DNA of 64,000 nt from Thermoplasmatota archaeon (GTDB lineage: Archaea > Thermoplasmatota > E2 > UBA202 > JdFR-43). Both the position numbers and the translations under genes were made by a program. The stretch covers positions 1,346-65,345 of the forward strand of contig JAWAYL010000002.1 in the NCBI GenBank assembly GCA_038818725.1. The letters are read 5' to 3'. A model generated the notes under the pieces. That model worked only from the letters and a program-made list of their open reading frames with translations, was not told the origin of the DNA and did not search any database. This document shows positions 4,373 through 63,786 of the stretch, in pieces. How positions within the stretch are numbered: position 1 is the first letter of the stretch; every line of letters begins with the position of its first letter.

Positions 4373-5146
4373 ATGAACCCACTTATGCCAGTAAAGGGGA
4401 AAATAATTGAAAAAAGAAAAATAAATGATAAAAAATTTTTGAGAATCGAGGCAGAAAACTTTAATTTTATTCCAGGACAATTTGTAGAGATATCTCTTGC
4501 TGGAATTGGAGAATTTCCAATATCGATATGCTCCCCACCCTATGAAAAAAATTTTTTTGAAATTTGCATAAGAAAAGTTGGAAGAGCAACTTCTTTCTTC
4601 TATAATATAGATGAAATTGATTATGTTTTTTATAGAGGGCCGTATGGAAATGGCTTTCCAATGGAAAAACTGAAAGGGAAAAATATTGTCGCAATCATAG
4701 GAGGGCTTGGTATACTGCCATTAAGAAGTTTTATAAAAGAAGCTATTCATTCAAAAATTTATAATCAGATAAAAATTCTTTATGGAGCGAGGAGCAAGGA
4801 CGAAATTATATTTCCAGAAGAAATTGAAGAATGGAAAAAGCATGCTGAGGTATATGAAATTTTTGAAAAAGAAGGAGAAAAAAGAGGTTTTGTAACTGAA
4901 TTATTAAATGATATAGTTTTTGATGGGGACGAATATCTTCTTATATGTGGTCCGCCTGCAATGTTTAAGCCAGTTATAGAAAAAGCTATAAAAAGAGGAG
5001 CAAATGAAGAAAATATATATTTGTCTGTTGAAAGAAGAATGAAATGTGGCATTGGAAAATGTGGGCATTGTATTGTTGGAAGCTATTATGCATGCATTGA
5101 TGGTCCTGTTTTTGAGTATGTTAAATATAAGCATGCTATTTTATAG
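4373..5146 (+). CDS. PyrK/NfnA/HydG-family FAD/NAD(P)-binding oxidoreductase subunit with C-terminal [2Fe-2S] motif
   Basis: 257 aa. A ferredoxin-reductase-like fold (RGPYGNGF, GGLGILP) and a C-terminal CGIGKCGHC...C cluster motif, as in sulfide dehydrogenase beta / NfnA / hydrogenase gamma. First gene of a 6-gene translationally coupled operon. Confidence 0.7.
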   Translation: MNPLMPVKGKIIEKRKINDKKFLRIEAENFNFIPGQFVEISLAGIGEFPISICSPPYEKNFFEICIRKVGRATSFFYNIDEIDYVFYRGPYGNGFPMEKLKGKNIVAIIGGLGILPLRSFIKEAIHSKIYNQIKILYGARSKDEIIFPEEIEEWKKHAEVYEIFEKEGEKRGFVTELLNDIVFDGDEYLLICGPPAMFKPVIEKAIKRGANEENIYLSVERRMKCGIGKCGHCIVGSYYACIDGPVFEYVKYKHAIL

Positions 5147-5167
5147 CAAGTAAATGATAAATAAGAG

Positions 5168-5638
5168 ATGATAATTATTTCAGCAATGCTTGTATATAAA
5201 CAATTTCCAGTTTCGATAAATCAAGAAAAATGCTCAAAATGCAGAATATGTGTCTCAATATGTGATTGTTTTTCTTATGATAAAGAAAGGAGCATTATTT
5301 TATTAAATAATATTTCCTGCAAGGGCTGCGGGGTTTGCACCGCTTCCTGCCCTTCTTCTGCTATATCGCATATCCAAGATGATTCGTTTTTTTATTTCTC
5401 TGAAAAAAAGGAGGTAAATGAGCTTGAATGTGAAAAATGTCTTTATGAATTTGTTGAAAGAGAAGATTCAGTAATTTTTTGTGATAGAAGATTTGATATT
5501 GGAATTGCTATTAAAAAATTTTGCGAAGGAAAGAGAATAGAAGTAAAGAAGTGCATTTTTTCAGACAAGCTAGTAGAAAATGAAAAATTCAGAAAATTTT
5601 CAAAAATTGTTCATCTGTTTGGTGTAGAAAATGATTGA
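5168..5638 (+). CDS. 2x[4Fe-4S] ferredoxin-like protein
   Basis: Motifs CSKCRICVSICDC and CKGCGVCTASCP. Its stop overlaps the next gene start (5631/5638). Confidence 0.6.
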   Translation: MIIISAMLVYKQFPVSINQEKCSKCRICVSICDCFSYDKERSIILLNNISCKGCGVCTASCPSSAISHIQDDSFFYFSEKKEVNELECEKCLYEFVEREDSVIFCDRRFDIGIAIKKFCEGKRIEVKKCIFSDKLVENEKFRKFSKIVHLFGVEND

Positions 5639-6689
5639 AGATATAATAACGAGAAGCAAAGCATATTATTGCGTTGAATGCAGGAAATGTAGTTCTGCAT
5701 GTCCAGTTACAAGAGTTTATGGAAAATTTTCTCCAGCAAGTATGGTAGAACACTCTCTGATTGGCATAGAAGATGAAATAATTTATTCATATGATATATG
5801 GAAATGCCTCACTTGTGGAATTTGTGAGAAGATATGCCCCTCTGGTGTGGATTTTTTAAGCTTTATAAAAGAAATAAGAGAAATTGCAAGAGAAAATAAA
5901 AATTTTGGAATCTCAGCACATGAAAATATTTTTGAAGAAGTAGCTTGCTTATTTGGAAAAAATGATATATTTTTAGAAATGAATGATGTAGAGATAGATG
6001 ACAAATCAAAAATTCTCTATTTTGCGGGCTGTTTGCCAATATATGATGTATTTTTTGATAGCATCGGATTCAATGGCATTGCTATTGCAAAAAATACAAT
6101 TAAGATTTTGAATTATTTTGATATAGTTCCATCTGTAATATTTTCATGCTGTGGGCACGATGCTTTATGGAGTGGAAATAAAGGAATTTTTGAAAAAATG
6201 AAAAGAAAAAATATGGAAAAAATTAAAAATTTTGAAAAAATAATATTTTCCTGCCCTGAATGCTACAGAACTTTTAAATTTGATTATAAAGCAAATGTTG
6301 AAATGATGCATATTTCAGAATTCCTTGCAAAAAAAGATTTTGAAGAGAATTTAAATAAAATTTGTACAATTCATGATTCGTGCAGGCTCGGCCGCCATTT
6401 GGGAATTTATGATGAGCCAAGAGAAGCTCTTAAAAAAATTGGATGTGAAATAAAGGAAATGGAGCATTCTCGCGAAGCCTCGATCTGCTGCTCTACTTCT
6501 GCATGGATGGCATGCGACTGGATGGCGGAACAGTTAAGAAAAGAAAGGCTTGCTGAAGCGGAAGAGCAGGCAAATTTGCTCATCACTACTTGCCATAAAT
6601 GCAAAATTCATTTCTTATGCACAATGAGTCATGAAAAATATAATATCGAAGTAAAGGATTTGGTTGAAGTTATTGGAGAGGCCATATGA
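5631..6689 (+). CDS. hdrD: HdrD-like heterodisulfide reductase subunit (HdrC ferredoxin domain fused to HdrB CCG domains)
   Basis: N-terminal CVECRKCSSACP and CLTCGICEKICP (HdrC-like). The C-terminal half has two CCG-type Cys-rich motifs (FSCCGHDALW...CPEC and DSCRLGRH...ICCSTSA...CHKC), as in HdrB/HdrD. No HdrE-like membrane subunit is present. Confidence 0.75.
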   Translation: MIEDIITRSKAYYCVECRKCSSACPVTRVYGKFSPASMVEHSLIGIEDEIIYSYDIWKCLTCGICEKICPSGVDFLSFIKEIREIARENKNFGISAHENIFEEVACLFGKNDIFLEMNDVEIDDKSKILYFAGCLPIYDVFFDSIGFNGIAIAKNTIKILNYFDIVPSVIFSCCGHDALWSGNKGIFEKMKRKNMEKIKNFEKIIFSCPECYRTFKFDYKANVEMMHISEFLAKKDFEENLNKICTIHDSCRLGRHLGIYDEPREALKKIGCEIKEMEHSREASICCSTSAWMACDWMAEQLRKERLAEAEEQANLLITTCHKCKIHFLCTMSHEKYNIEVKDLVEVIGEAI

Positions 6690-7960
6690 AGAATGTGCTT
6701 ATAATAGGAGGAGGCGTTGCTGGAATACAGGCGGCGCTTGACCTTGCGGATCAAGGCATACATGTTTATTTAGTTGAAAAAGAGCCAAGCATCGGCGGAA
6801 GAATGGCTTTGCTTGATAAAACAATGTCAACAAATGATTGCAGTATATGCATTCTTGCCCCTAAAATGAATGAATGCGCATCTCATCCAAATATAGAAAT
6901 TCTTGAATATTCTGAAGTTATTGGGCTTGAGGGAAATGCTGGAAATTTTAAGGTTAAAGTTAAAAGAAAGGCAAAATATGTTGATTCAAGCAAATGCACT
7001 GGATGTGGTGATTGCATGGAAAAATGTCCTACTGAAGTTCCAAATGAATACAATAGCTATATCGATAAAAGGAAGGCAATTTTTCTTCCATTTCCTCAAT
7101 CGGTTCCAAGAAAGGCAACAATTGATAAAAGATATTGCTTGAAATTGAATAAAAATAGATGCGGTCTTTGCCAGAAAATATGCAAGGCAAAGGCGATAGA
7201 TTATAGCCAAGAAGATAAGATAATTGAGCTTGATGCCGCCTCAATAATAGTTGCAACAGGTTTAGAAGTATATAATCCATATGATATTAAAGAATATGGT
7301 TATGGAAAATTTGCAAATGTGCATAGTTGGATTGAATATGAAAGGCTTATAAATGCATCTGGTCCAACTCATGGACATTTAAAATGTGCTCCAGATGGAA
7401 GAAGACCCAAGAGAATTGCATTTATTCAATGCGTTGGCTCTAGAGATGTTAAAAGATGCGAATGGTGCTCTTCTGTCTGCTGTATGGTTTCAATAAAAAG
7501 TGCAATGCTTGCAAACGAGCATTACAATGATATCGAATCCTTCATATTTTATTCAGATTTAAGAGTTTTCAGTAAAAGATTTTATGAATATAGCAAAAGA
7601 GGAGAAAAAGATTACAAAATTACTTACATACATGCTCGTCCAGGAGAAATAAAAGAAGATAGGCATACAAAAAATCTGATAATATATTATGAAGATGAAA
7701 AGGAAGGAAAAGTAAAAGAGCTTGAAGTAGAGATGGTTATTCTTGCAACTCCAATAATGCCTTCAAAAAGCAATCTCGAAATTTCAAAAATTCTTGAAAT
7801 AGAGCTTGATAAATATGGATTTATAAAAACAAATGAAGTTGAAACAACAAGAAAAGGCATATATGCTGCTGGTTGCTGTTGCTCGCCGAAAGACATAACT
7901 GAAAGCGTTTATCAGGCAAGCGCTGCCGCATGCAGGGCAGCGGAGTGGTGCCATGCCTAG
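6686..7960 (+). CDS. hdrA: HdrA-like flavoprotein paralog (FAD/TrxR-like domain plus inserted ferredoxin domain; lacks HdrA N- and C-terminal domains)
   Basis: GxGxxG motif MKNVLIIGGGVAGIQAALDLA, inserted 2x[4Fe-4S] motifs CTGCGDCMEKCP and CGLCQKICKA, and a CSSVCCMVS motif. 424 aa, much shorter than the canonical ~650 aa. Confidence 0.75.
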   Translation: MKNVLIIGGGVAGIQAALDLADQGIHVYLVEKEPSIGGRMALLDKTMSTNDCSICILAPKMNECASHPNIEILEYSEVIGLEGNAGNFKVKVKRKAKYVDSSKCTGCGDCMEKCPTEVPNEYNSYIDKRKAIFLPFPQSVPRKATIDKRYCLKLNKNRCGLCQKICKAKAIDYSQEDKIIELDAASIIVATGLEVYNPYDIKEYGYGKFANVHSWIEYERLINASGPTHGHLKCAPDGRRPKRIAFIQCVGSRDVKRCEWCSSVCCMVSIKSAMLANEHYNDIESFIFYSDLRVFSKRFYEYSKRGEKDYKITYIHARPGEIKEDRHTKNLIIYYEDEKEGKVKELEVEMVILATPIMPSKSNLEISKILEIELDKYGFIKTNEVETTRKGIYAAGCCCSPKDITESVYQASAAACRAAEWCHA

Positions 7961-9626
7961 AATAGGAGTTTTTATCTGCGACTGTGGAACAAATATAGCT
8001 GGCTTTTTAGATGTGCCTGCGGTATGTGAATATGCAAAAAGTTTGCCTGATGTAGTTTATGTAAAGGAAAATATGTATACTTGTTCAAATGCAGGCTTGC
8101 AAGAGATAATGAATGCAATTAAAGAGTATAATCTTGATAGAGTTGTTGTTGCATCATGCACGCCACGAACTCATGAACCACTTTTCAGAAAAGCATGTGA
8201 AATGGCTGGACTAAATAAATTTTTATTTGAATTTGTGAATATACGCGACCAATGCTCATGGGTCCATCAAAAAGAAAGAGAAAAAGCTACAGAAAAAGCA
8301 AAAGATTTGGTAAGAATGGGAGTTGCAAAAGCTCGCCTTCTTGAGCCTCTTGAGGAGATAAAAATAAGTGTGGAAAGAGCATGCCTTATTATAGGAGGTG
8401 GAATTTCTGGTTTAACCTCAGCTATTGCACTCGCAAAAAAAGGCATAGAGGTACATTTAGTGGAAAAAGATGAAAAGCTTGGAGGGATTTTAAACAATAT
8501 TTACAGAGTTTATCCAGATGATGAGGAGGCAATTGAAATTTTAGAGGATATTATTGAAGAAGTTAAAAAATATAAAAATATAAATATATATCTATCAAGC
8601 GAGGTGGAGAAAGTAGATGGATATATAGGGAATTTTAATGTAAAAATAAAAGGAAAAATAAATAAGGAGATAAAAGTAGGAACAATAATTGTTGCAATAG
8701 GAGCAAAACCATATCAACCAGCATACATGTATAACTATCAGGAATATGAAAATATAATAACTCAGATTGAGCTTGAAGAAATGCTTAAAGAAAATAAAAT
8801 AAAAGGAAAGAATTTTGTCTTTATTCAATGTGTTGGAGGAAGGGGAGAAAGGGTGAGATATTGCTCAAGAATATGTTGCATGAATTCAATAAAAAATGCA
8901 AGAATAATAAAGAAATTAATTCCTGATTCAAATGTTTATATAATTCATAAGGGCTTGCAGACATATGGAGTTAAATATGAAGAATATGTAAGGAAGGCAA
9001 GAGAGGAAGGTGTTAGATTTATAAGAGTAAGAGATGAAATTCCAACAGTTTCATCAATTGAAAGAAAAGATGGAAGAATTGTTGTTGGGTTCTATCATCC
9101 TGGACTAAGAAGAAAGATTGAATTGCCCGCAGATTTAGTAATTCTTTCAACACCTCTCGTAGAAAGTGAAGATGCAAAAAGAATATCTCAAATGCTAAAA
9201 GTTCCTCTTGGGCTGGATGGCTTTTTCTTTGAGGCGCATGTAAAGTTGCGCCCCGTAGATTTTGCAACAGATGGTATTTATATGTGTGGTTCATGCAGGG
9301 CGCCCGCAAGCATTGAGGAAGCAAAAATTCAAGCTTTAGCTGCTGCTGGAAGAGCATTAATTCCTATGGCAAATGGTTTTGTTAAAGTTGAGCCATATAC
9401 ACCATATATTGATGAGGAAAAATGCAGGGCTTGTGGGATGTGTGTTGAAGTATGTCCTTATGGAGCAATGAGGATTGTTGAAAAAAATGGTAAAAAAGTG
9501 GCGGAAAACATACAAGCAGCTTGTAAAGGATGTGGAGCTTGCTCTTCTTCCTGCATTCACAAGGCAATTGATATGAGGCATTTCAGTGATAAACAAATAA
9601 TTGCTGAAATAGAGGTGATAGATTGA
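7953..9626 (+). CDS. hdrA: HdrA heterodisulfide reductase subunit A (N-terminal 4-Cys domain + FAD domain + C-terminal 2x[4Fe-4S] ferredoxin; no inserted ferredoxin)
   Basis: N-terminus PRIGVFICDCGTNIAG...VASCTPRTHE; FAD motif CLIIGGGISGLTSAIALA; YCSRICCMNS; C-terminus CRACGMCVEVCP and CKGCGACSSSCIH. Overlaps the neighbouring genes by 8 nt (start) and 4 nt (stop). Confidence 0.8.
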   Translation: MPRIGVFICDCGTNIAGFLDVPAVCEYAKSLPDVVYVKENMYTCSNAGLQEIMNAIKEYNLDRVVVASCTPRTHEPLFRKACEMAGLNKFLFEFVNIRDQCSWVHQKEREKATEKAKDLVRMGVAKARLLEPLEEIKISVERACLIIGGGISGLTSAIALAKKGIEVHLVEKDEKLGGILNNIYRVYPDDEEAIEILEDIIEEVKKYKNINIYLSSEVEKVDGYIGNFNVKIKGKINKEIKVGTIIVAIGAKPYQPAYMYNYQEYENIITQIELEEMLKENKIKGKNFVFIQCVGGRGERVRYCSRICCMNSIKNARIIKKLIPDSNVYIIHKGLQTYGVKYEEYVRKAREEGVRFIRVRDEIPTVSSIERKDGRIVVGFYHPGLRRKIELPADLVILSTPLVESEDAKRISQMLKVPLGLDGFFFEAHVKLRPVDFATDGIYMCGSCRAPASIEEAKIQALAAAGRALIPMANGFVKVEPYTPYIDEEKCRACGMCVEVCPYGAMRIVEKNGKKVAENIQAACKGCGACSSSCIHKAIDMRHFSDKQIIAEIEVID

Positions 9627-12625
9627 AAATACTTGGCTTGCTTTGCAACTGGTGCAGTTATGCAGGAGCGGATTTAGCTGGCGTTAGTAGATTTCAATAT
9701 CCTCCAAGCATAAGAGTTGTTCGTGTGATGTGTTCAACAAGAGTTGAGCCATCTTTTATTATTAAAGCATTTTTAAAAGGAGTTGATGGTGTTCTTGTGG
9801 GCGGATGCCATCTTGGAGATTGCCACTATGTTACTGGAAATTACTATACCATAGGCAAGATTTATGTTGCAAAAAAATTGCTTAAATTTGCTGGAATTAA
9901 TCCCTCTCGTTTAAGACTGGAGTGGATTTCTGCAAGTGAAGGAGAAAAATTTGCAAGAGTTGTTGAAGAATTTACAAGAGAAATTGAAGAGCTAGGCCCT
10001 TTAAAAGATGAGCTAAAAGATGATAATATGCTTAAAGTTGCATATAATGTCGCTAATAAGCCAAGAGCAAGAATAATTGCTTCAAAGCATAGAATGCTTA
10101 CATTTTTTGGAAATAAATATAACGAAATATATACCAATTATGAATTTGATAGGATAAGTGATGAAATTTTAAAAGATGAAATGATTACAGAAGCAATAAA
10201 ATTTTTATTAAAGGATGAAAAAAATTTTGAGGAAATTGCTGAAAGAATTGGAGTTAATGGAAAAACCTTATATTTTTACCTTCTTGATTTGATAAAAAAG
10301 GGAGAAATATCATTTAGAGAAGAAAATGGGAAATATCTGTTTTTTGTAGCAGATAAAAAGGAGGAAAAAATTGAGACATTTATACCAAATTCAATCATAA
10401 GCAAGGAGGCGCATCTAATATTTGGAGCAGGCGCAAAAGGAATAAACAGAGCAATTGAAATAGCAAGAAAAGGGGAAAATGTTGTTATTGTTGAAAGATT
10501 TCCTTCAATAAATAAATATATTATAAGAAAGCATGCCTCCTCTTTTGAAAATGAATGTAAATATGAGGAATTTTTAAATTTAGTAAAAGAAGGAAAAATA
10601 ACTGTTTTAAATAATTCAATTGTAAAAAGCATAAGAGATGGAATTGTAAGAATAATAAAATATCCATCTCGTATAAATGAAAATTGCAATAACTGCAATA
10701 TATGCTATGAAGTTTGCCCTCTTAAAACAGTTGATAGAGAGCAAACTCTTTTTTCAAGAAAGGCAGTTTATGGAAGAAACGGCATTCCATGCACCTTCTT
10801 TTTGGAGAGAGAAAGCCCGTTTTGCCAGACAAATTGTCCAGCACATGTAGATGTTCGTGGGTATGTAGCGAGAATTGCTGAAGGAGATTTTGAAGGAGCA
10901 ATAAATGTTATAAGGCAAAGATTGCCATTACCTGGTGTGCTTGGAAGAGTATGTCCCCATCCTTGCGAAGAGTTTTGCAGAAGAAACGGGATTGATGAGG
11001 CAATTTCAATAAGACTACTAAAGAGATTTGTCGCTGACTGGGAATGGCAAAACAAGGGAATAATTTATCTTGGAAAAATGCCAGTAAATGAGAATAATAA
11101 GCGTAGGGTTGCTATAATTGGCTCTGGTCCTGCTGGCTTAACTGTTGCATATGAACTCGCCAGAATTGGCTACAAAGTTAAAATTTTTGAAGCATTACCT
11201 GTTGCCGGCGGGATGCTTGCTGTTGGCATACCTCCTTATAGGCTTCCAAAAGATGTGCTTGCTAGAGAAATAAATGCGATTCTTGAAATGGGGGTTGAAT
11301 TGCAGTTGAATTGCAAGGTAGGAAAGGATATATCTTTTGATGAGGTGAGAAAAAATTTTGATGCGGTATTTATTGGAATTGGTGCACATAAAAGCAGGAA
11401 AATGGGAATTGAAGGAGAAAATTTGCGGGGTGTTATATCAGGTATTGATTTTTTAAGAGAAGTAAATATATATCCCGAAAATGTAAGAGCAATTATTTCT
11501 GGAAAGAAAGTAGTTGTTGTTGGCGGTGGAGATGTTGCAATAGATGCAGCAAGATGCGCAATAAGATTTGGATGCGATGTAACAATTTTATATAGACGAA
11601 GCAGGGATGAAATGCCAGCTCGTGAAGAGGAAATAAGATATGCAGAGGAGGAAGGGGTTAATTTTCGCTTTCTGGCAGCTCCATTAAAAATTATTGGGAA
11701 AGGAAGCGTTGAAAAAATCGAATGTATAGAAATGGAGCCTGGTGAGCCAGATGAAAGTGGGCGCAGGAGGCCTGTGCCGAAAAAAGGAAGCGAATTCTTC
11801 ATTGAAGCAGATGTTGTTATCTCTGCAATTGGCCAGCAACCTGATTTATCATTTTTACCAGATGAAATAAAAAAAGATGGATTAATTGTTGTTGATGAAA
11901 ATACTGGGGCAACTTCTTTGCCAGGAGTTTTTGCAGGAGGAGATGTAGTAAGTGGCCCTTCAATAGTAATAGAAGCGGTTGCATGGGGAAGAAGGGTTGC
12001 TAGAGCAATAGATGCATATTTAAATGGCAAAAAAATAGAATTTGATCCTATTGAAAGAGATATAAATAGGGCAATTGCAAGTTATGAAGATGTTGAACTA
12101 ATGAAAAGAAATGTTGTTTTATCAATTTTTAAAAAAGAAAATAGGAAAAATATTGAAGAAATAAGCATCGATGAAAGATTAACAACATTTAAGGAAGTTG
12201 AAAAGGGTTTTGATAAAAAAACAGCAATAAGTGAGGCTTCTCGCTGCCTTGCCTGTAGGGCTTGCCTTGGCTGTGGGATATGTGGAAATGAATGCATTAG
12301 AAATGCTATTGATTATGAAGAAAAGGAGGAGGAGATTGAAATATTTGCAAAATCAATAGAAATTGATCCAGAAATAAAATTTAATTATGAATTTTTCACT
12401 CCTTTTGAAATTGAAGATATGCTCCAGCTAGGAATAATTATGAATTTTAAAGGAGAAAAAATAAAGAAGATATGCTTTTTAAATTTTGAGGAAAACAAAT
12501 ACTTCAATGAATTAAAGAAAAAAATTTTAGAAAATGGAATAGAAATTGGCGAATCAGATTTTAAAGTAGATTTCCGCTTTTATGAAACAGATTATTATAA
12601 AAAAATTAAAAAAATGGCTAGCTAA
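9623..12625 (+). CDS. Fusion protein: MvhD (N-terminus) - linker/possible wHTH - GltD/NfnB-like NADPH:FAD oxidoreductase with 4Fe-4S domains - ~120-aa C-terminal tail
   Basis: Residues 1-130 (MKILGLLCNWCSYAGADLAGVS...GGCHLGDCHYVTGNYY) match MvhD. Residues ~330-900 match the GltD/NfnB family: CPAHVDVRGY...RVCPHPCEEFCRR, RVAIIGSGPAGLTVAYELA, VVVVGGGDVAIDAARCAIRFG. A 4Fe-4S motif CLACRACLGCGICGNEC lies near the C-terminus. 1000 aa. Confidence 0.75.
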   Translation: MKILGLLCNWCSYAGADLAGVSRFQYPPSIRVVRVMCSTRVEPSFIIKAFLKGVDGVLVGGCHLGDCHYVTGNYYTIGKIYVAKKLLKFAGINPSRLRLEWISASEGEKFARVVEEFTREIEELGPLKDELKDDNMLKVAYNVANKPRARIIASKHRMLTFFGNKYNEIYTNYEFDRISDEILKDEMITEAIKFLLKDEKNFEEIAERIGVNGKTLYFYLLDLIKKGEISFREENGKYLFFVADKKEEKIETFIPNSIISKEAHLIFGAGAKGINRAIEIARKGENVVIVERFPSINKYIIRKHASSFENECKYEEFLNLVKEGKITVLNNSIVKSIRDGIVRIIKYPSRINENCNNCNICYEVCPLKTVDREQTLFSRKAVYGRNGIPCTFFLERESPFCQTNCPAHVDVRGYVARIAEGDFEGAINVIRQRLPLPGVLGRVCPHPCEEFCRRNGIDEAISIRLLKRFVADWEWQNKGIIYLGKMPVNENNKRRVAIIGSGPAGLTVAYELARIGYKVKIFEALPVAGGMLAVGIPPYRLPKDVLAREINAILEMGVELQLNCKVGKDISFDEVRKNFDAVFIGIGAHKSRKMGIEGENLRGVISGIDFLREVNIYPENVRAIISGKKVVVVGGGDVAIDAARCAIRFGCDVTILYRRSRDEMPAREEEIRYAEEEGVNFRFLAAPLKIIGKGSVEKIECIEMEPGEPDESGRRRPVPKKGSEFFIEADVVISAIGQQPDLSFLPDEIKKDGLIVVDENTGATSLPGVFAGGDVVSGPSIVIEAVAWGRRVARAIDAYLNGKKIEFDPIERDINRAIASYEDVELMKRNVVLSIFKKENRKNIEEISIDERLTTFKEVEKGFDKKTAISEASRCLACRACLGCGICGNECIRNAIDYEEKEEEIEIFAKSIEIDPEIKFNYEFFTPFEIEDMLQLGIIMNFKGEKIKKICFLNFEENKYFNELKKKILENGIEIGESDFKVDFRFYETDYYKKIKKMAS

Positions 12626-13565
12626 TTTCTCCCGCCCAATATGGCTTCCTCACATATTCATATATCTTTTGAGATGCTATTGCTCCATGCGCTGCGCCAA
12701 CAATAAGCAGGCGGAAAGCGCCTCGCACTATATCTCCAACCGCAAAAATTCCCTCAACATTTGTGCGCTGCATTGCATCAGTTATTATATAACCTTTTTC
12801 ATCTGTTTTTATTCCAAGCTCAGCAAACATTTCTGTATTTGGTTTTAATCCAACTGCAAGAACTACTTTATCTACCTTGAGTGTTTTTCTTTCTCCTGTT
12901 TTGTTGTTGAAAATAACTGCTTCCTCAACTTTATCTTTTCCTCTTATTTCTTCAAGCTCTGTATTCAACAATATATTTATCTTACTTTCCTCCATTTTCT
13001 TTACATTTTCATCTAAAGCCCTGAATCTATCTCTCCTATGGATTATTGTTATTTCTTTAGCAAGATCAACTAAATCAAGGGCTGCATCAACAGCGGTATC
13101 TCCTCCTCCAACAATGAGAACCTTGCTATCTATAAAATCTTCTCTATGAGTAACATAGTAATAAACACCCTTATCTCCTTTATTGAATTTACTTTCTCCT
13201 TCTATACCAAGTTCCTGAGGGCGTGTTCCAGTTGCTATAACAATTGTCTTACCATGATATTCATTCTCTTCTGTTTTCACAACTCCTCCTTTTTCTATTT
13301 TAATGACTCTTTCTCTTACCATTTTAATATATGGACTTTCTCTTGCTTGCTTTATCCATTTTCTTACAAGTTCAATTCCAGTTATTCCTTCTGGAAAGCC
13401 AGGATAATTTGGTATTACCTTGCTTGGATATAGTGTTGCTGGCAAACCACCCCATTTTCCTCCTTCAAGTATAAGTGTTTTAAGCATTCTACTTGCACAC
13501 ATGATAGCAGTTGTCAATCCAGCTGGTCCGCCTCCAACAACTATAACATCATACATTTCTTCCAT
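12618..13565 (-). CDS. Thioredoxin reductase-like flavoprotein (TrxB/FNR family) lacking the redox-active CxxC
   Basis: MYDVIVVGGGPAGLTTAI and a second nucleotide-binding motif KVLIVGGGDTAVDAALDL. No CxxC motif anywhere, so possibly a YumC-type ferredoxin:NADP reductase. Convergent with the hdr/mvhD operon, overlapping it by 8 nt. Confidence 0.65.
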   Translation of the reverse strand: MEEMYDVIVVGGGPAGLTTAIMCASRMLKTLILEGGKWGGLPATLYPSKVIPNYPGFPEGITGIELVRKWIKQARESPYIKMVRERVIKIEKGGVVKTEENEYHGKTIVIATGTRPQELGIEGESKFNKGDKGVYYYVTHREDFIDSKVLIVGGGDTAVDAALDLVDLAKEITIIHRRDRFRALDENVKKMEESKINILLNTELEEIRGKDKVEEAVIFNNKTGERKTLKVDKVVLAVGLKPNTEMFAELGIKTDEKGYIITDAMQRTNVEGIFAVGDIVRGAFRLLIVGAAHGAIASQKIYEYVRKPYWAGEIS

Positions 13566-13627: not shown

Positions 13628-13695
13628 GTAGCGATTAACTTAATTTCTATTTTCTTTGTTGTAGCATCCCTTCCTGAAAGAGAATCAGGAGGGTC
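13628..13695 (+). repeat. Copy A of a conserved upstream element containing palindrome TCCTGA-N7-TCAGGA
   Basis: GTAGCGATTAACTTAATTTCTAT...GTTGTAGCATCCCTTCCTGAAAGAGAATCAGGAGGG. A near-identical reverse-complement copy lies at 33938-34047. Ends 63 nt before tRNA-Lys. Confidence 0.7.
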
Positions 13696-13757
13696 TTATT
13701 TCTTTACACTGCCAATTTCCACGTGAAAAAATATATATATCAAAGCATTTTTTCATA

Positions 13758-13849
13758 GGGCCTGTAGCTCAGCTAGGTAGAGCACCTGGCTTTTAACCAG
13801 GTGGCCGAGGGTTCGAAATGGCGCTGCCACGAAAATCCCCCCAGGCCCG
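13758..13849 (+). tRNA. tRNA-Lys(TTT) with a probable ~17-nt non-canonical intron in the T-loop
   Basis: Acceptor GGGCCTG/CAGGCCC, D-arm GCTC-AGCTAGGTA-GAGC, anticodon arm CCTGG-CTTTTAA-CCAGG. The T-arm GAGGG-TTCGA[ATGGCGCTGCCACGAAA]AT-CCCCC only closes if the bracketed segment is removed. The insert contains a TGGC-GCT-GCCA hairpin. Confidence 0.6.
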
Positions 13850-14417
13850 CTAGTCTATATATTAGGGAGTGAAAGAAAAAGATTAAATTTCTTTCCTTAT
13901 AGTTGGATGGGATGAAATGGGTTGGAAAGAACGAGTAGAAGATTTGAAGATGAATAAAGGAGCACACTATTGCTCTTTTTGAAGCAACATATGATTGAGG
14001 TAATAAATTTGCAAATCAGCTAAAATTCTAGCTTTTTAAAGGATGAGATAGCTTTATTTTATATCCTTTCTTTTCTAGCCATTATTGGCTAATATAATTG
14101 CTATTTCAATGCTTGAAAATTCTTTAAAAAAATTCAATTAATGCTCTTTTCTCGTTCTAATTTTACCTTCTTTTATTATTTCAGTCGTTACTTTTACACC
14201 CATTTGATATGCTTGGGCTTTATCATGCTATCAACCCTATCGAAAACAAATTGAAAACGGGACAAAAATATTAAACTGTCTTTTCTTAACAAATCATCAT
14301 ATTTTAGGTATGAAGAGTTGCTCTTTCCTCTCTCACTAAGGGAACATTGCAGTAAGGACAAAATCCTTAAATACCAAAAAAGTATTACATTTTGATAAAA
14401 AAGTAATATGTGATAAG

Positions 14418-26607: not shown

Positions 26608-26940
26608 ATGGGAAAATTTAGAGAAATGATTGAAAGCTATAAAGAAGCAAAAAAAGAATTAATAAAAAATGAGTCAGAAACAATGAAAAACTATCAGAAA
26701 TTCGTTGAATCAGTTCTTAAAGATAATCATTTAGATAAAAAAACAAAAGAGTTAATTGCTCTTGGGATAGCAATTGTAAAGAGGTGTGACTACTGCATTG
26801 GCATACATGTTGAAAAAGCATTGCAAGCTGGAGCGACAAAAGAAGAAATAATTGATGCAGCCCTTGTCGCAGTGCTTATGGAGGGAGGACCAGCAATGAC
26901 ATATTTTACTGAAGTAAAAAAAGCATTAGATGAGTTTTAA
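26608..26940 (+). CDS. Carboxymuconolactone decarboxylase (AhpD-like) family protein
   Basis: CDYCIGIH motif in a 110-aa helical protein. Confidence 0.75.
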   Translation: MGKFREMIESYKEAKKELIKNESETMKNYQKFVESVLKDNHLDKKTKELIALGIAIVKRCDYCIGIHVEKALQAGATKEEIIDAALVAVLMEGGPAMTYFTEVKKALDEF

Positions 26941-27854
26941 TGCAGCTCTACATATATTTTCTCGGAACAGGAGGAAGCTGGCCAACAATTCAGAGAAATG
27001 TATCTTCAATAGCAATAAAAAGAGGAGGAGAAATAATTCTTTTTGACTGCGGAGAGGGAACACAAAGACAGCTTCAAAAATCAGAAATAAGTTATATGCA
27101 GATAAAGAGGATTTTTATAACACATTTCCATGGAGACCATATTCTTGGTTTGCCTGGCTTAATACAAACATTTCAGCTGAATGACAGAAAAGATGATTTA
27201 TATATTTATGGACCAAAAGGAATAAATGAGCTTGTTGATGAAATTGTTCATCTTGGCTATTTTAAACCTTCGTATAATATATACTCAAAAGAATTGAGGG
27301 AAAATGATTGTATTGAATTGGAGGGATATAAAATAAAATGTATTTTTGTTGAGCATAATGTTCCAACTCTTGCATATTGTATTGAAGAAGATAAAAGACC
27401 AGGAAAATTCAATAAAGAAAAGGCTCTGTTGCTAGGTGTGCCAGAAGGACCTCTCTTCAGAAAGCTTCAGGAGGGTAAAAATGTAGAAATAAATGGAAGA
27501 ATAGTAACTCCTGATATGGTGCTTGGCGCCCCTCGCCCTGGAAGAAAAATAGTTATATCTGGAGATACAATGCCATGCATCAAACTTATAGATTTTGCAA
27601 AAAAAAGCGATGTACTGATTCATGATGCCACATTTTCATCAGATATGGAGGAAAAAGCAAAGGAATATTTCCATTCCACCGCATCCCAGGCGGCGCAAAT
27701 AGCAAAAGAGGCGGAAGTTGAGAAATTAGTTTTAACTCATATAAGTCCGAGATATAAAAATGCAAAAATTCTTGAGGAGGAGGCGAGGAAAATATTTCCC
27801 AATTCATATCTGGCAAATGATTTCATGAAGATAGAAGTTAAATTAAAGAAGTGA
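26940..27854 (+). CDS. rnz: Ribonuclease Z (tRNA 3' endonuclease)
   Basis: LGTGGSWPT, ILFDCGEGTQRQL, HFHGDH metallo-beta-lactamase motifs. 304 aa. Confidence 0.9.
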   Translation: MQLYIYFLGTGGSWPTIQRNVSSIAIKRGGEIILFDCGEGTQRQLQKSEISYMQIKRIFITHFHGDHILGLPGLIQTFQLNDRKDDLYIYGPKGINELVDEIVHLGYFKPSYNIYSKELRENDCIELEGYKIKCIFVEHNVPTLAYCIEEDKRPGKFNKEKALLLGVPEGPLFRKLQEGKNVEINGRIVTPDMVLGAPRPGRKIVISGDTMPCIKLIDFAKKSDVLIHDATFSSDMEEKAKEYFHSTASQAAQIAKEAEVEKLVLTHISPRYKNAKILEEEARKIFPNSYLANDFMKIEVKLKK

Positions 27855-30312: not shown

Positions 30313-30516
30313 ATGATTCCTCAGCATGGGCATTGCCATATATGTGGAAAAGCAATAAAATATGGAGAGAATTTTTGTAGTGAAAAATGCAAAAGTGAGT
30401 ATGAAGGTTATATAAAAAAGAGGAGGAGATTGCAGATAATATTTTATATTCTAATTTTCCTTGTTATTATAGCATATATAGTAATATATATAGTAATATT
30501 AACCCAGAGAAGCTAA
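30313..30516 (+). CDS. Zn-ribbon mini-protein with C-terminal TM helix
   Basis: CHICGKAIKYGENFCSEKC, then the hydrophobic IIFYILIFLVIIAYIVIYIVIL. Confidence 0.45.
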   Translation: MIPQHGHCHICGKAIKYGENFCSEKCKSEYEGYIKKRRRLQIIFYILIFLVIIAYIVIYIVILTQRS

Positions 30517-31538
30517 ATTAATTTTTCCCCTTTTATTTCTACTTCAATAACCTTATTTTTTTCTATTTTTGTATCAATATTAATGAATTTTTTAAGCAAA
30601 AATATCTCTGTTGAAGCATGCATACTAAAGCTCAAGCATTTAAATTTTATTTTATTTCCGCTTATTGCGAAAAAAGGCAGCAACTGATCAACTGCTTTTT
30701 CATCTAAATCAACACCTGCTTCTATTTCCTCTATTAATTTTTTTGCTGTAAATCTGCCTATTTCCTCAGCCGGCCTGCCTTTTTCTCCCAAACAATCGGC
30801 GCCCAATATTTTCGGCTTGCTCCAAAGCACAAGCCCAACACCTGGGGAAATTGTATCATATTTCTCAATTTTTATATTTGCTTGAAATCTATTTTTAAGA
30901 GTTTCTTCCGCTGATTTTTTTATTCTTTCAGAAATTTGCATTGGTAGGTTTGAAATATGAACAATTCCTTCTATTTCTTCAATTTTTTCATCAAAATAAA
31001 TTGGCTTTATTTCCTTGCTTGGCTTTATCAAAACCTCTATCTTTCCTCCACCAGCTGGATAATATCCTCTCTTATGCAATTTTCCTTCAATTTCTAATCC
31101 CATTTTTTTAAGGTTTTCAATAAAAACATTTTTGAAATAATCCCATGGGGGAGACCATCTTACATCTGTTCCTCCTTTCAAAATTAATTTTGTTTCTTTT
31201 ATAGCAAAAATTGATGGAATTATGCATGCCTGCAATACAAGCGTTACACTTCCTGCTGTTCCAACATCAAATTCGTATTCTCCTCCCTCAATTTCTCCTG
31301 GATAAAATTCTATTTCGCTTGACCCGACTTTTAACCCTTTAACTTCTGCATTGCACATTTTTGCAACTGTTTCAATCGCAGTTATATGCTGATTTCTCAA
31401 CCCGGGATTCGGTCTATTTGCCCTTATATTAAAAATTTTTACTGGCTTTTTTGTTATAGAGGAAAATGCTATGCTCATCCTTAAAATTTGTCCGCCACCC
31501 TCGCCATAGCCCCCATCTATCTCTATCATTTTCACCAC
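30513..31538 (-). CDS. rtcA: RNA 3'-terminal phosphate cyclase
   Basis: IEIDGGYGEGGGQILRMSIAFSSITKKPVKIFNIRANRPNPGL...HITAIE, with the catalytic His region. Confidence 0.9.
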   Translation of the reverse strand: MVKMIEIDGGYGEGGGQILRMSIAFSSITKKPVKIFNIRANRPNPGLRNQHITAIETVAKMCNAEVKGLKVGSSEIEFYPGEIEGGEYEFDVGTAGSVTLVLQACIIPSIFAIKETKLILKGGTDVRWSPPWDYFKNVFIENLKKMGLEIEGKLHKRGYYPAGGGKIEVLIKPSKEIKPIYFDEKIEEIEGIVHISNLPMQISERIKKSAEETLKNRFQANIKIEKYDTISPGVGLVLWSKPKILGADCLGEKGRPAEEIGRFTAKKLIEEIEAGVDLDEKAVDQLLPFFAISGNKIKFKCLSFSMHASTEIFLLKKFINIDTKIEKNKVIEVEIKGEKLI

Positions 31539-31572
31539 AAAGCTTAAATTGTTATATATTTATAATCATATA

Positions 31573-31645
31573 GCGGGGTGGGGTAGTCAGGAAAACCCGT
31601 CGGGCTCATAACCCGAAGATCCGTGGTTCAAATCCACGCCCCGCT
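31573..31645 (+). tRNA. tRNA-Met/Ile2 (anticodon CAT), elongator-type
   Basis: Acceptor GCGGGGT/GCCCCGC, anticodon arm TCGGG-CTCATAA-CCCGA, T-arm CGTGG-TTCAAAT-CCACG. G1-C72 argues against an initiator. Confidence 0.85.
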
Positions 31646-31646
31646 A

Positions 31647-33869
<2,223 letters not shown>

Positions 33870-58825: not shown

Positions 58826-58934
58826 CCCGGCGTAACTCAGACTGGTAGAGTGGCGGACTGTAGTTGCATCTCTTGGGCTATAACCCACCGCCGCGGAAAT
58901 CCGCAAGTCGCTGGTTCAAATCCGGCCGCCGGGA
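58826..58934 (+). tRNA. tRNA-Tyr(GTA) with ~35-nt intron at the canonical 37/38 position
   Basis: Acceptor CCCGGCG/CGCCGGG, D-arm ACTC-AGACTGGTA-GAGT, anticodon stem GCGGA with CTGTAG, then the intron (TTGCATCTCTTGGGCTATAACCCACCGCCGCGGAAA), then TCCGC. T-arm GCTGG-TTCAAAT-CCGGC. Confidence 0.8.
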
Positions 58935-58989: not shown

Positions 58990-59718
58990 ATGAGATTGCT
59001 CATAAAGCTTAAAGATGAGAAAAAGCAGGCTATAGATAATTCATATCACAAGTTACAGGGGTTTGTTTATAAATTGATGAAAAATGATTATTCATCGCTT
59101 CATGATAAAAAAGGATACAAGTTTTTCTGCTTTTCAAATATATTTCCTTTTGAAGAAAATAGGATAAGAAATTTTATAATTTCGTCACCAAGCAATGAAA
59201 TTATAAATTCAATTTCAAAAAATATTGAAATAGGAAAATTGGTAAATATAGGAGAAATGCAATTTAGAATTAAAGAATTCTCAATTTTTAATGTTAAAAT
59301 TCCAAAAAGAAATGTTCATATCTGCTGTTCTACGCCTATTATAATAAGAATTCCTGAGGCAAAATATGATAAATATAAAATTCCTGAAGAAGAAAGGAAG
59401 GCAAGATATGTTTATTGGCGTCCGAAATATAGCTTTGAAGCATTTTTAAAGCAACTAACAGAAAATTTAATAAAAAAATTCAATGATTTTTATGGAACAG
59501 AAATTTCAACATATGATTTATTTGAGCAATTTGTTTTTAAAAAAGTTGTTGCAAATGAATTAATCATCAATGGAAAAGCATATCCAGTAATAGGAAGCAT
59601 ATGGGAATTTATATGGCATAATATGGATTCGATGCAAAGAAAAATTATTGAATTTGGATTAGATACTGGCTTCGGAGAAAGAAATAGCTTTGGATTTGGT
59701 TTTGTAAATGTGGTCTAG
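58990..59718 (+). CDS. cas6: Cas6 CRISPR pre-crRNA endoribonuclease
   Basis: RRM-like N-terminus and the C-terminal Gly-rich loop GFGERNSFGFGFVNVV. Confidence 0.85.
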   Translation: MRLLIKLKDEKKQAIDNSYHKLQGFVYKLMKNDYSSLHDKKGYKFFCFSNIFPFEENRIRNFIISSPSNEIINSISKNIEIGKLVNIGEMQFRIKEFSIFNVKIPKRNVHICCSTPIIIRIPEAKYDKYKIPEEERKARYVYWRPKYSFEAFLKQLTENLIKKFNDFYGTEISTYDLFEQFVFKKVVANELIINGKAYPVIGSIWEFIWHNMDSMQRKIIEFGLDTGFGERNSFGFGFVNVV

Positions 59719-59727
59719 ATGATAGAA

Positions 59728-61095
59728 TTACGAAACCAAGGATTTCAAAGAGTTCAGACAAGATTTTAAATCTTCTATAATATCTCCTTCGTACTTCTCT
59801 TTAATGGTATCTTCTGATACTCCGCAGAATCCGTGCCCTAAAATGCTTTTATTTCTTATTTCGTTTAAAGTATCCAATTTGTCTCCTAAACTTTTGACTA
59901 TTTTCATTATTTCCTTCAATTTTGTATCTCTTTCTTTACTTATAAGATATCCAATAACCTTTCTCAAAACAAGGGTATTTGGCTCGCTATAATTTATTTT
60001 ATCCTTTTGGAGAGATTCTAATAATTCCTCATTTTGTTCTATATAATTTTTAAACTCTTCAAAACCTTTAGCCCCTTTTTCTGTGGATATTTTAGTGGTG
60101 TATTCAAAAATAAACTTTAATGATGCTTCATTAAACCTAACTATTCTACCTAGAAAATCGATATAATTTCCTTCCTCAAATTTTATTAATATGTTATTAA
60201 ATAGTTCATCAAGTAAAGCTATCAGCAATAGGAAATAATCTTTAGAAAACTGGTCTACAGAAGAATGCTTCTCCAACTTTTCTAAGTTATTAATAATATT
60301 CTCTATCTCGGATTTTTCTATACCTGAATAGCTTTCTTTGATTTTTTTATAATGGGTAATTGCTTTTTTAAAATCGAATAAATATCGATAGTACTCGCCT
60401 CGAAGTCTTTCTAATTCTTTATTATCAAGCAAGCCATATTTTTCTGCCAACTCGATAGCGCCTTTATATTGATGTTTCTCTTTTAAACTTTTATAAGTTT
60501 CTGTAAGAAAGGCTTTGTATATTTTATCACCTACTCTTAGTAATTTACACTGGTTGCTACCTGCTGGTAAATAAATCGCTTGAACTAAATTTCTGAATTT
60601 TGAAACACAATTAAAGAGTAAAGCTTCATTCTCTGCCGGTGTGCCACCAGTTAGAGAAACAAAATATATATCTGCGGAGAATGATTTATTGAAAAATTTT
60701 TCATAAAATTCATACATTTTATCTCTATCTGCAGGATTATCATTTATCTGAATTACACTAGTATTTTCACCCAACAATTTTTTTAGTATTTGAGCTATAT
60801 ACCAAGTATCTTGAGGATGGAAGGGTACCTGCTCTGTAGCAAATAAATAAATATGTTGGAGTTTGTAATCCTGGGTAGTATCGATATAATTAACTACAGG
60901 CCCTAGAAGTAAAGGCTCTAATTTTAAATTAACCCATTTATTCTGATTAAATATTTCTTTGCTTTTTTCATATACATTTTCATCTTTTTTAAAATAAGGT
61001 TTGCCATTTATCCCCAGATCACTTATACCAACATTTGCATATAGTATAGCATTTTTCAACCTTTCTTTCATATTCACCCCCTTATTTTTACCCAT
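59728..61095 (-). CDS. csx1: Csx1/Csm6-family CARF-HEPN accessory ribonuclease
   Basis: 455 aa. N-terminal Rossmann-like CARF region, and C-terminal HEPN Rx4-6H motif (LNEIRNKSILGHG). An alternative start is the ATG at 61071, just 2 nt downstream of the csm5 stop (no overlap). Confidence 0.7.
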   Translation of the reverse strand: MGKNKGVNMKERLKNAILYANVGISDLGINGKPYFKKDENVYEKSKEIFNQNKWVNLKLEPLLLGPVVNYIDTTQDYKLQHIYLFATEQVPFHPQDTWYIAQILKKLLGENTSVIQINDNPADRDKMYEFYEKFFNKSFSADIYFVSLTGGTPAENEALLFNCVSKFRNLVQAIYLPAGSNQCKLLRVGDKIYKAFLTETYKSLKEKHQYKGAIELAEKYGLLDNKELERLRGEYYRYLFDFKKAITHYKKIKESYSGIEKSEIENIINNLEKLEKHSSVDQFSKDYFLLLIALLDELFNNILIKFEEGNYIDFLGRIVRFNEASLKFIFEYTTKISTEKGAKGFEEFKNYIEQNEELLESLQKDKINYSEPNTLVLRKVIGYLISKERDTKLKEIMKIVKSLGDKLDTLNEIRNKSILGHGFCGVSEDTIKEKYEGDIIEDLKSCLNSLKSLVS

Positions 61096-62153
61096 CCTAA
61101 TGGGTATTCATTATTATAACTCACTCTTCTTGTCTTAGGAAATTTCAAAACAAATTTTCCTGTTTTTGGATTTCTCCCGAGACCGAGTTTTTTTCTTAAG
61201 TTCCTACCTTTTTCCCATTCTTCAAATTTCTCCGCTTTCAAGCCTATGGTTTTTGCATGCCATCCTCCACCCCATCCAAGATTTAATATCATCTCATTTT
61301 CCTTGCAATTTTCTATTTCATCCTTCAATTTATAAAATACATTTTTTGTTACATTAGAAAATTTATAATTTAATTGTTTTAGAATTATCTCTTTAGAAAA
61401 TTCACTGCATATTTTGAAAATTTCTTCTTTTTTCATATACTCTTTTACTAGATTCTCTTTAAAGATGTGTTTATTTAACAGTTCATTGTCTATCCTAAAA
61501 TAAAAGCTCGTCTTTTCCCCTCGCTTTATACTTTCTATGTATGTGGGAATTGTTCGAGGATTCCCAACAATTTTTATTTCATTTATCTCTAAAGAGGATA
61601 AAGAAAAAGGAAGAGTATCTGAGATTCTTAATGCTCTTAAAATATCGTAATGTGGTTCTTTACCGAATATTTCTTTTTCTAATCTTATACAAGCTTCATT
61701 TGGTTTTATATATTTCTTTTCTAATAATTCTTTACAGTAATCAAACACTTTTTCTTCACTTACTATTTTCCATAAAAGTGCTGTTCTTATTGCACCTTTT
61801 ATTGAACTTCCGGGAATATAAGGAAATCCCTCAATATTTTTAATAAATTCTCTAATCTGAGGCTTTGTGTTTCGTATTCTATCAAAATCTATCTTCATAG
61901 GAATTGAATACTGCGAGAAATCGGTAGGGTTTAAGTTGTTTTTCTTTAAAAAATCCTCCATTTTAAAATCTTCTTTTTCTTTATTAATTTCTTCTACGAG
62001 CGAGATATTATTTTCTATACAATACCCGGCAAATTTATCAAAATCCATTTTTATAAAATTTTTGTTTTCAATAACAAAATCTATCGATGTAAAAACATTC
62101 CCATTACCTACATGTAAGGGTGTAAGAACCTCTAATTCTAATCTATTCTTCAT
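61074..62153 (-). CDS. csm5: Csm5 (Cas7-family RAMP of type III-A effector)
   Basis: LEVLTPLHVGNG N-terminus, PYIPGSSIKGAIRT RAMP motif, G-rich loop LNLGWGGGWHAKT. 359 aa. Confidence 0.75.
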   Translation of the reverse strand: MKNRLELEVLTPLHVGNGNVFTSIDFVIENKNFIKMDFDKFAGYCIENNISLVEEINKEKEDFKMEDFLKKNNLNPTDFSQYSIPMKIDFDRIRNTKPQIREFIKNIEGFPYIPGSSIKGAIRTALLWKIVSEEKVFDYCKELLEKKYIKPNEACIRLEKEIFGKEPHYDILRALRISDTLPFSLSSLEINEIKIVGNPRTIPTYIESIKRGEKTSFYFRIDNELLNKHIFKENLVKEYMKKEEIFKICSEFSKEIILKQLNYKFSNVTKNVFYKLKDEIENCKENEMILNLGWGGGWHAKTIGLKAEKFEEWEKGRNLRKKLGLGRNPKTGKFVLKFPKTRRVSYNNEYPLGWVKIRG

Positions 62154-63038: not shown

Positions 63039-63041
63039 TTT

Positions 63042-63785
63042 TTATGATTTTATAAAATCTATTGCTTTTTCTATGGTTTCAAACTCTTTTGAAGCGTTTT
63101 TATTATCTTGAAGATAATATTCTATCTTTTTTACAATGATTTTCTGCTGTTTTCTGATTTCGATTTTTCCATACCCACGAGAGCCGTGCCCTCCAAGATA
63201 ATCATCCTCCAACATTTTTAAGCATCTTTCAAGATTTTTTAAGTCTTCTTTTGCTTGCTCTTTATCCTCTATATTGTAAATAATTTCAAAATTGAAAACG
63301 CTTCCTGCTGGAATTCTTTCTATTTGTCTGGGTGTAGCTTGAGTGGTTATTCTATCAATCACGTTTTCAAACTTCCATTCTGTATATTTCAGCCCAGTAT
63401 CTATATTTTCTAATTTTTTTCTACTTTCTTCTGTTAAGTGCAAATCTCTAACGATAATTCTTGATGGAGACTCACCTGTCGCTGAGCCAAAAATTCTACA
63501 AACAGGACATTTTTTGGCCTCGTTTCTTGTCTGGCATTCGTGCCTTTTAATGGTATTATCTATATAAATATTAAAAAAATTTTCATCCTTGGCATTCGCT
63601 ATTTCCCACAGACTTCTTAATTTTCCTTTCAAAGAACTTCCTGGTATGTAAGGATAATCTGTTATTGGATCTCTTACAACAGGACTATCTATACCACCAA
63701 TTTTCATTGTTTCTCTGCTTGCACCCACATGCAAACCAGTTTTTAATTCCATCTCTCCTTTTATAATTATTTTCCCTAATAGCAT
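63042..63785 (-). CDS. csm3: Csm3 (Cas7-family backbone subunit)
   Basis: GKIIIKGEMELKTGLHVG, PYIPGSSLKGKLRS, CPVCRIFG. The true start is probably the ATG at 63785 (MLLGK...). The track ORF uses a TTG at 63821. Confidence 0.85.
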   Translation of the reverse strand: MLLGKIIIKGEMELKTGLHVGASRETMKIGGIDSPVVRDPITDYPYIPGSSLKGKLRSLWEIANAKDENFFNIYIDNTIKRHECQTRNEAKKCPVCRIFGSATGESPSRIIVRDLHLTEESRKKLENIDTGLKYTEWKFENVIDRITTQATPRQIERIPAGSVFNFEIIYNIEDKEQAKEDLKNLERCLKMLEDDYLGGHGSRGYGKIEIRKQQKIIVKKIEYYLQDNKNASKEFETIEKAIDFIKS

Positions 63786-63786
63786 T

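Follow-up and report, generated by a model that had tools for sequence, protein, structure and literature searches.

A probable 18-nt intron with a bulge-helix-bulge motif in the T-loop of a Thermoplasmatota tRNA-Lys(UUU) gene

Positions 13758-13849 (+) of the window, the whole 64-kb stretch of DNA that was analysed, can be read with high confidence as a real, functional tRNA-Lys(UUU) gene whose T-loop is interrupted by an 18-nt intron of the archaeal, protein-spliced type. The kind of element is already known; what differs is its Thermoplasmatota host and its conservation at one site in one isoacceptor across uncultured members of that group. A literature search on non-canonical introns of Thermoplasmatota found no paper describing a conserved 59/60 intron in tRNA-Lys(UUU). 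MAGs of this kind will seem to be without tRNA-Lys(UUU), here the decoder of the most used Lys codon in a 32% G+C genome, unless an intron-aware archaeal search is used. A clean, strict bulge-helix-bulge that occupies a non-canonical site in Thermoplasmatota is also relevant to the association, familiar from textbooks, of intron position with endonuclease type, and the pre-tRNA from the window offers a simple substrate for asking whether strict endonucleases cut a perfect motif in the T-arm.

The tRNA-Lys(UUU) gene and its detection

All of the gene but its T-loop corresponds to a standard archaeal class I tRNA with the anticodon UUU. Its parts are listed below; stems, arms and loops come from a hand parse, and the basis of the two exons is given with each.

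13758-13817 (+): 5' exon, tRNA positions 1-59 (hand parse, Rfam match, and ARAGORN after in-silico splicing), spanning the acceptor 5' strand, D-arm, anticodon arm, variable loop, T-stem 5' strand and T-loop nucleotides U54-A59
13836-13849 (+): 3' exon, tRNA positions 60-73 (sequence, and ARAGORN after in-silico splicing), made up of U60, the T-stem 3' strand CCCCC, the acceptor 3' strand CAGGCCC and the discriminator G
Acceptor stem (+): GGGCCUG / CAGGCCC, 7 bp
Linker and D-arm (+): UA, then GCUC-AGCUAGGUA-GAGC, then A
Anticodon arm (+): CCUGG-CUUUUAA-CCAGG with a 7-nt loop; anticodon UUU at 13792-13794
Variable loop (+): UGGCC
T-stem (+): GAGGG at 13807-13811 / CCCCC at 13837-13841

The discriminator is G13849, and CCA is not encoded (CUA comes next). 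The two T-stem strands are 25 nt apart instead of the usual 7, which leaves an insert of 18 nt. Deleting 13818-13835 in silico yields a 74-nt tRNA-Lys(UUU) with the 7-nt T-loop UUCGAAU, and ARAGORN calls this spliced form as tRNA-Lys(ttt). The product has all invariant and semi-invariant nucleotides: U8, A14, G18G19, A21, U33, G53, U54U55C56, R57, A58, and C61. A preliminary description, made from the letters of the window, had read the locus as tRNA-Lys(UUU) with a non-canonical T-loop intron. That core reading holds, but its intron size of ~17 nt needed correction, since excising those 17 nt leaves a T-loop of 8 nt.

The gene had also been described as an annotation trap, and it behaves as one. 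ARAGORN makes no call on the intact gene, and its only calls in the window are tRNA-Gln and tRNA-Met. The Rfam tRNA model RF00005 covers only the 5' part, 13758-13815, and skips the T-arm; its 31.4 bits are barely above the gathering score of 29. Loci from related archaea fare no better: at the gathering threshold, the same model reports the Lys gene in nine of 17, weakly or partially (29-40 bits), while eight have no tRNA match at all, and every gene tested that carries a second intron was missed.

The contig occurs in four independent assemblies, namely GCA_038839295.1 and GCA_038863095.1 (NCBI MAG) and two Logan assemblies, which agree at 100% over the tRNA region; an assembly artefact is therefore not the source of the intron-bearing gene. 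Many Thermoplasmatota MAGs have a tRNA-Lys(UUU) with exactly the same positions 1-48. The T-stem contains an A50.C64 mismatch (window 13808 and 13840), where most Thermoplasmatota relatives have G50-C64; these relatives also have A49-U65 where the window has G49-C65. Because a metagenome locus (L038) has the same mismatch, it is probably a genuine lineage trait and not an error. A 64-aa ORF that overlaps the tRNA on the other strand, 13773-13967 (-), was rejected as spurious.

A candidate promoter precedes the gene.

13725-13740 (+): putative archaeal promoter, in which the TATA-like AAATATATATAT follows GAAAA, a purine-rich BRE-like element (sequence reading)

Its distance from the mature 5' end, 18-33 nt with the TATA-like element at ~13729-13740, means that the 5' leader would be very short. 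Upstream of the tRNA in L038, the block GTGAAAAAATATATATAT..AAGCATTTTTTCATA is retained although the flanking genes there are unrelated. A promoter function can be proposed for 13725-13740. The spacers that flank the tRNA contain inverted repeats, one upstream (CCCUUCCUGA...UCAGGAGGG, 13669-13694) and one downstream (GAAAGAAA...UUUCUUUC, 13872-13896), the latter followed by a pyrimidine-rich run. The downstream repeat could be a tRNA terminator. Neither of the two repeats is conserved in L038. Behind the gene, a non-coding spacer of 570 nt (13850-14417) contains no ORF of note and has no Rfam match.

The bulge-helix-bulge motif

The archaeal bulge-helix-bulge consists of two 3-nt bulges on opposite strands with a 4-bp helix between them, and it is cut after the second nucleotide of each bulge (PMC5829648, PMC4090602). 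The preliminary description expected such a motif around the intron. On folding with RNAfold, a strict hBHBh' motif forms, and it is the minimum-energy structure both for the whole pre-tRNA and for the T-arm alone. The elements below are from the RNAfold minimum-energy structure, except for the intron.

13818-13835 (+): intron AUGGCGCUGCCACGAAAA, 18 nt, between tRNA positions 59 and 60 (in-silico splicing; same site in relatives)
13807-13841 (+): complete hBHBh' motif
13807-13811 with 13837-13841 (+): outer helix h, which is the T-stem, with the A50.C64 mismatch inside it
13812-13815 with 13830-13833 (+): central helix H, 4 bp, UUCG (U54-G57) paired with CGAA
13816-13818 (+): 5' bulge AAA (A58 A59 / A), predicted cut after 13817
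13834-13836 (+): 3' bulge AAU (A A / U60), predicted cut after 13835
13819-13822 with 13826-13829 (+): inner hairpin h', 4 bp, UGGC paired with GCCA, loop GCU at 13823-13825

The two 3-nt bulges are opposite and exactly 4 bp apart, and h and h' each have at least 2 bp. Four of the five positions of helix h are paired, and 3 bp are kept in the minimum-energy fold. Cutting in the bulges and joining the ends restores a canonical tRNA in silico. An A-run at the junctions means that moving both cuts 1-2 bases 5' gives an identical mature sequence; 59/60 was chosen among these equivalent cuts because the bulge-helix-bulge geometry fits there. The splice junction is predicted to read ...GGUUCGAA joined to UCCCCCC. 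In relaxed motifs (HBh', hBH, BHL), a bulge is missing, disrupted or replaced by a loop; here, both bulges are intact.

Energy contributes little, as folding of the single sequences gives modest z-scores (-1.9 and -1.0); support for the motif comes instead from its register and from comparison. Among random 18-mers with the composition of the window, the chance of a 4-bp central helix together with a 4-bp inner helix in register is about 5 in 10,000.

Group I and group II introns of tRNA genes are built around a catalytic RNA core that runs to hundreds of nucleotides, and they interrupt the anticodon loop. A self-splicing intron of either group was considered and rejected for the insert, which is only 18 nt long and lies in the T-loop; a search of the window found no Rfam intron match (E<=1).

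The hairpin of the intron is flanked by a direct repeat, CGAAA, at 13814-13818 and 13830-13834. Such a repeat might be taken for a target-site duplication, and the locus for a tRNA pseudogene with an 18-bp insertion or duplication in its T-loop, a view with which the rejection of the gene by standard tRNA finders would agree. The repeat is, however, explained by the motif itself, because TTCGAA is self-complementary and the strand that pairs with UUCG must read CGAA. Moreover, the exons are intact and lack none of the invariant nucleotides, and L038 retains the promoter block. More than 20 species-level genomes have inserts at this very site, in which the splicing geometry is preserved and the hairpins covary. 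The need for the tRNA is a further objection. AAA is the dominant Lys codon of the window (1464 AAA against 404 AAG among the 19416 codons of 55 ORFs, AAA making up 7.5%), so the organism cannot do without a working tRNA-Lys(UUU), a strong argument against a pseudogene, with the proviso that the tRNA genes seen are those of 64 kb of the genome and an intron-less second copy of tRNA-Lys(UUU) is possible elsewhere. On this evidence, a pseudogene is highly improbable, and the preferred reading is that of an intact gene with an intron. The repeat also hints at how the intron might have arisen. An insertion that duplicated C56-A59 would automatically make the central helix; this may explain why introns recur at 59/60, with the palindromic T-loop possibly acting as a landing pad.

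Introns at the same site in related archaea

One genome per species, from 185,579 species, was scanned with a pattern that combined a Lys anticodon arm and a GGGCC acceptor with a gap of 13-43 nt separating the two strands of the T-stem. The scan returned 28 loci, 22 of which have an intron at the same site as the window. Nearly all of these are labelled Thermoplasmatota, Thermoplasmata or Thermoplasmatales, and the 5' exons of the 22 are identical or nearly identical to that of the window. A metagenome scan contributed 10 further loci, all with the same-site intron, and the two scans together provide 23 distinct intron-bearing T-arms. The window's own species is absent from the genome-scan output, which holds no 70-nt match to it; either the species representative lacks the contig of the window or the species is not represented in the scan set.

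The same-site introns are 14-35 nt long. Their central helix is UUCG/CGAA, with CGAA replaced occasionally by CGAG or CGGA (G.U) or by AGAA (one mismatch). The 5' bulge reads AAN and the 3' bulge AAU, AUU or AGU. The inner segments show no sequence kinship, yet they fold into hairpins. A few relatives depart from the strict form: AGAA as the intron strand of H creates a G57.A mismatch in L005, L007, L016, and L019, and the 14-nt introns of L009 and L025 have almost no h'. Unlike the window, these loci fit the relaxed-motif class. L038, on a metagenome contig of 33% G+C, has the same 18-nt intron as the window, and the hairpin loop alone differs (GCU to GUC); its neighbouring genes are unrelated to those of the window. 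Gene context is not conserved in the other related loci either, as tblastn of the 55 window ORFs against them found almost no shared neighbours.

Covariation was assessed in a fixed-register alignment of 17 distinct sequences, comprising the T-stem, H, both bulges and the outermost 4 nt on each side of the inner segment. With the h' columns set by position from the intron ends and not by homology, standard pairs fill 92.8% of the cells against 77.2% after shuffling, and none of 500 shuffles reaches 92.8%. The covariation score is 0.421, compared with 0.121 for shuffled alignments and at most 0.097 when the partners are slid by 1-3 columns. Changes on both sides are found in all four inner-helix pairs and in two T-stem pairs. 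H can vary on its intron side only, because its exon side is the invariant T-loop, and that variation is confined to G.U changes or one recurrent mismatch. Among the homologues, it is thus the structure of the intron and not its sequence that is conserved.

These comparisons also bear on the idea that the insert is retained, so that the mature RNA would keep an enlarged T-arm and act as an unusual tRNA or a tRNA-like RNA with another role. The length of the insert varies from 14 to 35 nt among the relatives and the splice-site geometry alone is conserved, which is the signature of an intron. In addition, every elongator tRNA needs the elbow between T-loop and D-loop, and a T-loop of 25 nt would abolish it. 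Retention of the insert is accordingly barely credible, and removal of the insert as an intron remains the favoured reading.

Several related loci have features of their own. Besides the 59/60 intron, the tRNA-Lys of L008, L012, L013, L015, L021, L023, L027, L029, L035, L036, and L040 has a second intron, of ~30 nt, in its D-loop. In L013, for example, the second intron is found upstream of 6822 and reads gggcctgtagctcagccaggt/a ggaaaggg...ctttccctggat/aGAGC, with H formed by CCAG/CUGG. The 3' bulge of the D-loop intron merges into an internal loop, giving a relaxed, HBh'-like motif. Several of the double-intron loci are from MAGs of soda-lake or salt-lake sediment, and the lineages with the same-site intron come from hot springs, vents, the subsurface, and soda-lake sediments. 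Four Bathyarchaeia MAG loci (L018, L024, L026, L031) have a tRNA-Lys(UUU) with a T-loop insert of 30-33 nt in another register (UUCAAA/CUUGRAAGG...). This insert forms a long hairpin without the same 4-bp UUCG/CGAA central helix and most likely represents a relaxed motif, located at either 58/59 or 59/60. Finally, a tRNA-Lys(CUU) in a Thermoproteota MAG (L010, 6798-6871) and one in Candidatus Jordarchaeum (L030, 6532-6610) have an insert of 22-27 nt directly after the T-stem 5' strand (53/54), which ends in a copy of the start of the T-loop, UUCG.

Relation to known tRNA introns

Position 59/60 is a catalogued site of non-canonical tRNA introns (PMC4090602). The closest known case is tRNA-Cys of ARMAN-2, whose 59/60 intron has a relaxed hBH motif and has served as a substrate for assaying broad endonuclease specificity (PMC5829648). 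The two share the site, a short protein-spliced intron, a structure of the bulge-helix-bulge type built partly from T-loop nucleotides and the same annotation problem; unlike the ARMAN-2 intron, that of the window is strict hBHBh'. The known 59/60 introns have Crenarchaeota or DPANN hosts, whereas the window comes from a Thermoplasmatota MAG and the site is conserved in one isoacceptor across many genomes.

Canonical 37/38 introns, exemplified in the window by that of tRNA-Tyr(GUA) (58864-58898), likewise have a 4-bp helix and two 3-nt bulges and presumably use the same endonuclease and ligase pathway. They differ from the T-loop intron in lying in the anticodon loop, in using the anticodon stem as their outer helix and in being handled by the Rfam model. 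The multi-intron and split tRNA genes of Crenarchaeota, Nanoarchaeota, and Methanopyrus (PMC4033280, PMC5829648) follow the same principle of gene disruption, and the relatives with a second, D-loop intron resemble them in this respect. Unlike those genes, the one in the window has a single intron and is contiguous, neither split nor permuted. Ectopic T-arm introns are also found in nucleomorph tRNA genes and in nuclear tRNA genes of Cyanidioschyzon merolae (PMC4090602, PMC3728597). These, however, are eukaryotic, often 3-24 nt long without a full bulge-helix-bulge, depend on different machinery and have no homology to the intron of the window.

The intron had been put forward as a lineage marker, and the sequences make this plausible, in the sense of an intron common to many uncultured Thermoplasmatota. 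That it is old and vertically inherited in many of them, and that, together with the relaxed D-loop intron of some of these lineages, it represents an unrecognised expansion of tRNA gene disruption in Thermoplasmatota, probably with a modified EndA, can be offered only as a tentative proposal. The significance would be greater if the intron were an ancient Thermoplasmatota character handled by a strict endonuclease.

Proposed splicing pathway and endonuclease

By analogy with the known archaeal pathway, the steps of expression and splicing, their order and the use of the promoter can be proposed as follows. Transcription would start from the TATA-type promoter just upstream. In the precursor, U54-G57 would pair with the last CGAA of the intron, leaving the T-loop unable to form; the T-stem, the 4-bp helix and the intron hairpin would stack as one rod with two 3-nt bulges, and the elbow between T-loop and D-loop would be blocked. 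EndA would then cut once in each bulge, after A59 (13817) and before U60 (after 13835), to leave a 2',3'-cyclic phosphate and a 5'-OH, and a ligase of the RtcB type would join A59 to U60 to give the T-loop UUCGAAU. RNase Z and RNase P would trim the ends, and CCA would be added. Modification of the T-loop and tertiary folding, including the elbow, would be possible only after splicing. With its helix extending outwards from the tip of the T-arm, the motif is expected to be sterically accessible, in contrast to the D-loop intron in tRNA-Thr of A. pernix, where cleavage is slowed by the tRNA core (PMC3241643).

According to the preliminary description, the intron would need both a bulge-helix-bulge motif and an endonuclease of relaxed specificity. 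The motif is there, but the second requirement does not follow, since a strict hBHBh' RNA makes no such demand by itself. Recognition of the bulge-helix-bulge by archaeal EndAs does not depend on the mature tRNA domain, as in mini-helix substrates and rRNA precursors. This general knowledge counts against the view, possible though rather doubtful, that the intron is real but that its removal depends on a relaxed- or broad-specificity EndA (heterotetrameric or loop-bearing), being outside the anticodon loop. Reviews do tie introns at non-canonical positions to (alpha-beta)2, epsilon2 or loop-bearing EndAs (PMC4090602, PMC3241643, PMC5829648, PMC4033280), and some state that the euryarchaeal alpha4 and alpha'2 endonucleases cut at the standard position only (PMC3241643, PMC4090602). 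Euryarchaeota, including Thermoplasmatales with the alpha'2 type, are described as having introns at the canonical position only (PMC4090602, PMC3241643, PMC5829648, PMC4033280). Relatives with relaxed motifs (AGAA in the central helix, the HBh'-like D-loop intron) also suggest a tolerant enzyme in their lineages. However, relaxed specificity has been linked to the disrupted motifs HBh', hBH and BHL (PMC5829648), and the motif of the window is strict, with both bulges and the 4-bp helix intact. The endonuclease of cultured Thermoplasmatales is, moreover, of the alpha'2 type (PMC5829648).

A tblastn search with M. jannaschii EndA, in a sequence agreeing with PDB 1a79, found no match in the window or the related loci. 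Neither an EndA nor an RtcB gene is present in the 64-kb window, and no endonuclease or ligase gene was found in the related loci. A profile of five EndA domains from the PDB gave 5339 matches in a set of 5.8 billion proteins; the 120 matches listed are from Methanococcales, Methanopyrus and the like, with none attributable to the MAG of the window.

Host and genomic neighbourhood

NCBI names the proteins of the window 'MAG: ... [Candidatus Thermoplasmatota archaeon]'. The window has ~32% G+C and encodes the PolD large subunit, CDC48, Alba, ribosomal protein S19e, GluRS, RNase Z, and RtcA. The host, a PolD-encoding Thermoplasmatota MAG, is therefore not a crenarchaeote of the classic intron-rich orders. 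Features related to tRNA and RNA processing are as follows.

26940-27854 (+): RNase Z (tRNA 3'-end maturation)
30513-31538 (-): RNA 3'-terminal phosphate cyclase RtcA, immediately adjoining tRNA-Met (31571-31647)
58826-58934 (+): tRNA-Tyr(GUA) with an intron of ~35 nt at the canonical 37/38 position (about 58864-58898); Rfam match of 52.7 bits over the full length

In tRNA-Tyr, a 4-bp helix (C32-U35 with GCGG, including two G.U pairs) and 3-nt bulges can be drawn. ARAGORN, run without its intron option, missed this gene. The canonical intron of tRNA-Tyr implies that the organism splices tRNAs. An Rfam search of the window at E<=1 found no further disrupted tRNAs.

Two gene clusters of the window were recorded in passing. 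No CRISPR array was detected anywhere in the 64 kb, but the end of the window (58990-63821) holds Cas6 (58990-59718, +) followed by four minus-strand genes, three of which encode RAMP proteins, one with a Csm4 C-terminal domain; this arrangement indicates a type III CRISPR-Cas module running off towards the window end. A redox gene cluster extends over 4373-13565. It includes a 1000-aa fusion (9623-12625) of an MvhD/FlpD-like domain and an NAD(P) oxidoreductase resembling the glutamate synthase small subunit, with HdrA-like and Fe-S proteins encoded upstream, and a thioredoxin-reductase-like gene (12618-13565, -) that is divergent from the tRNA.
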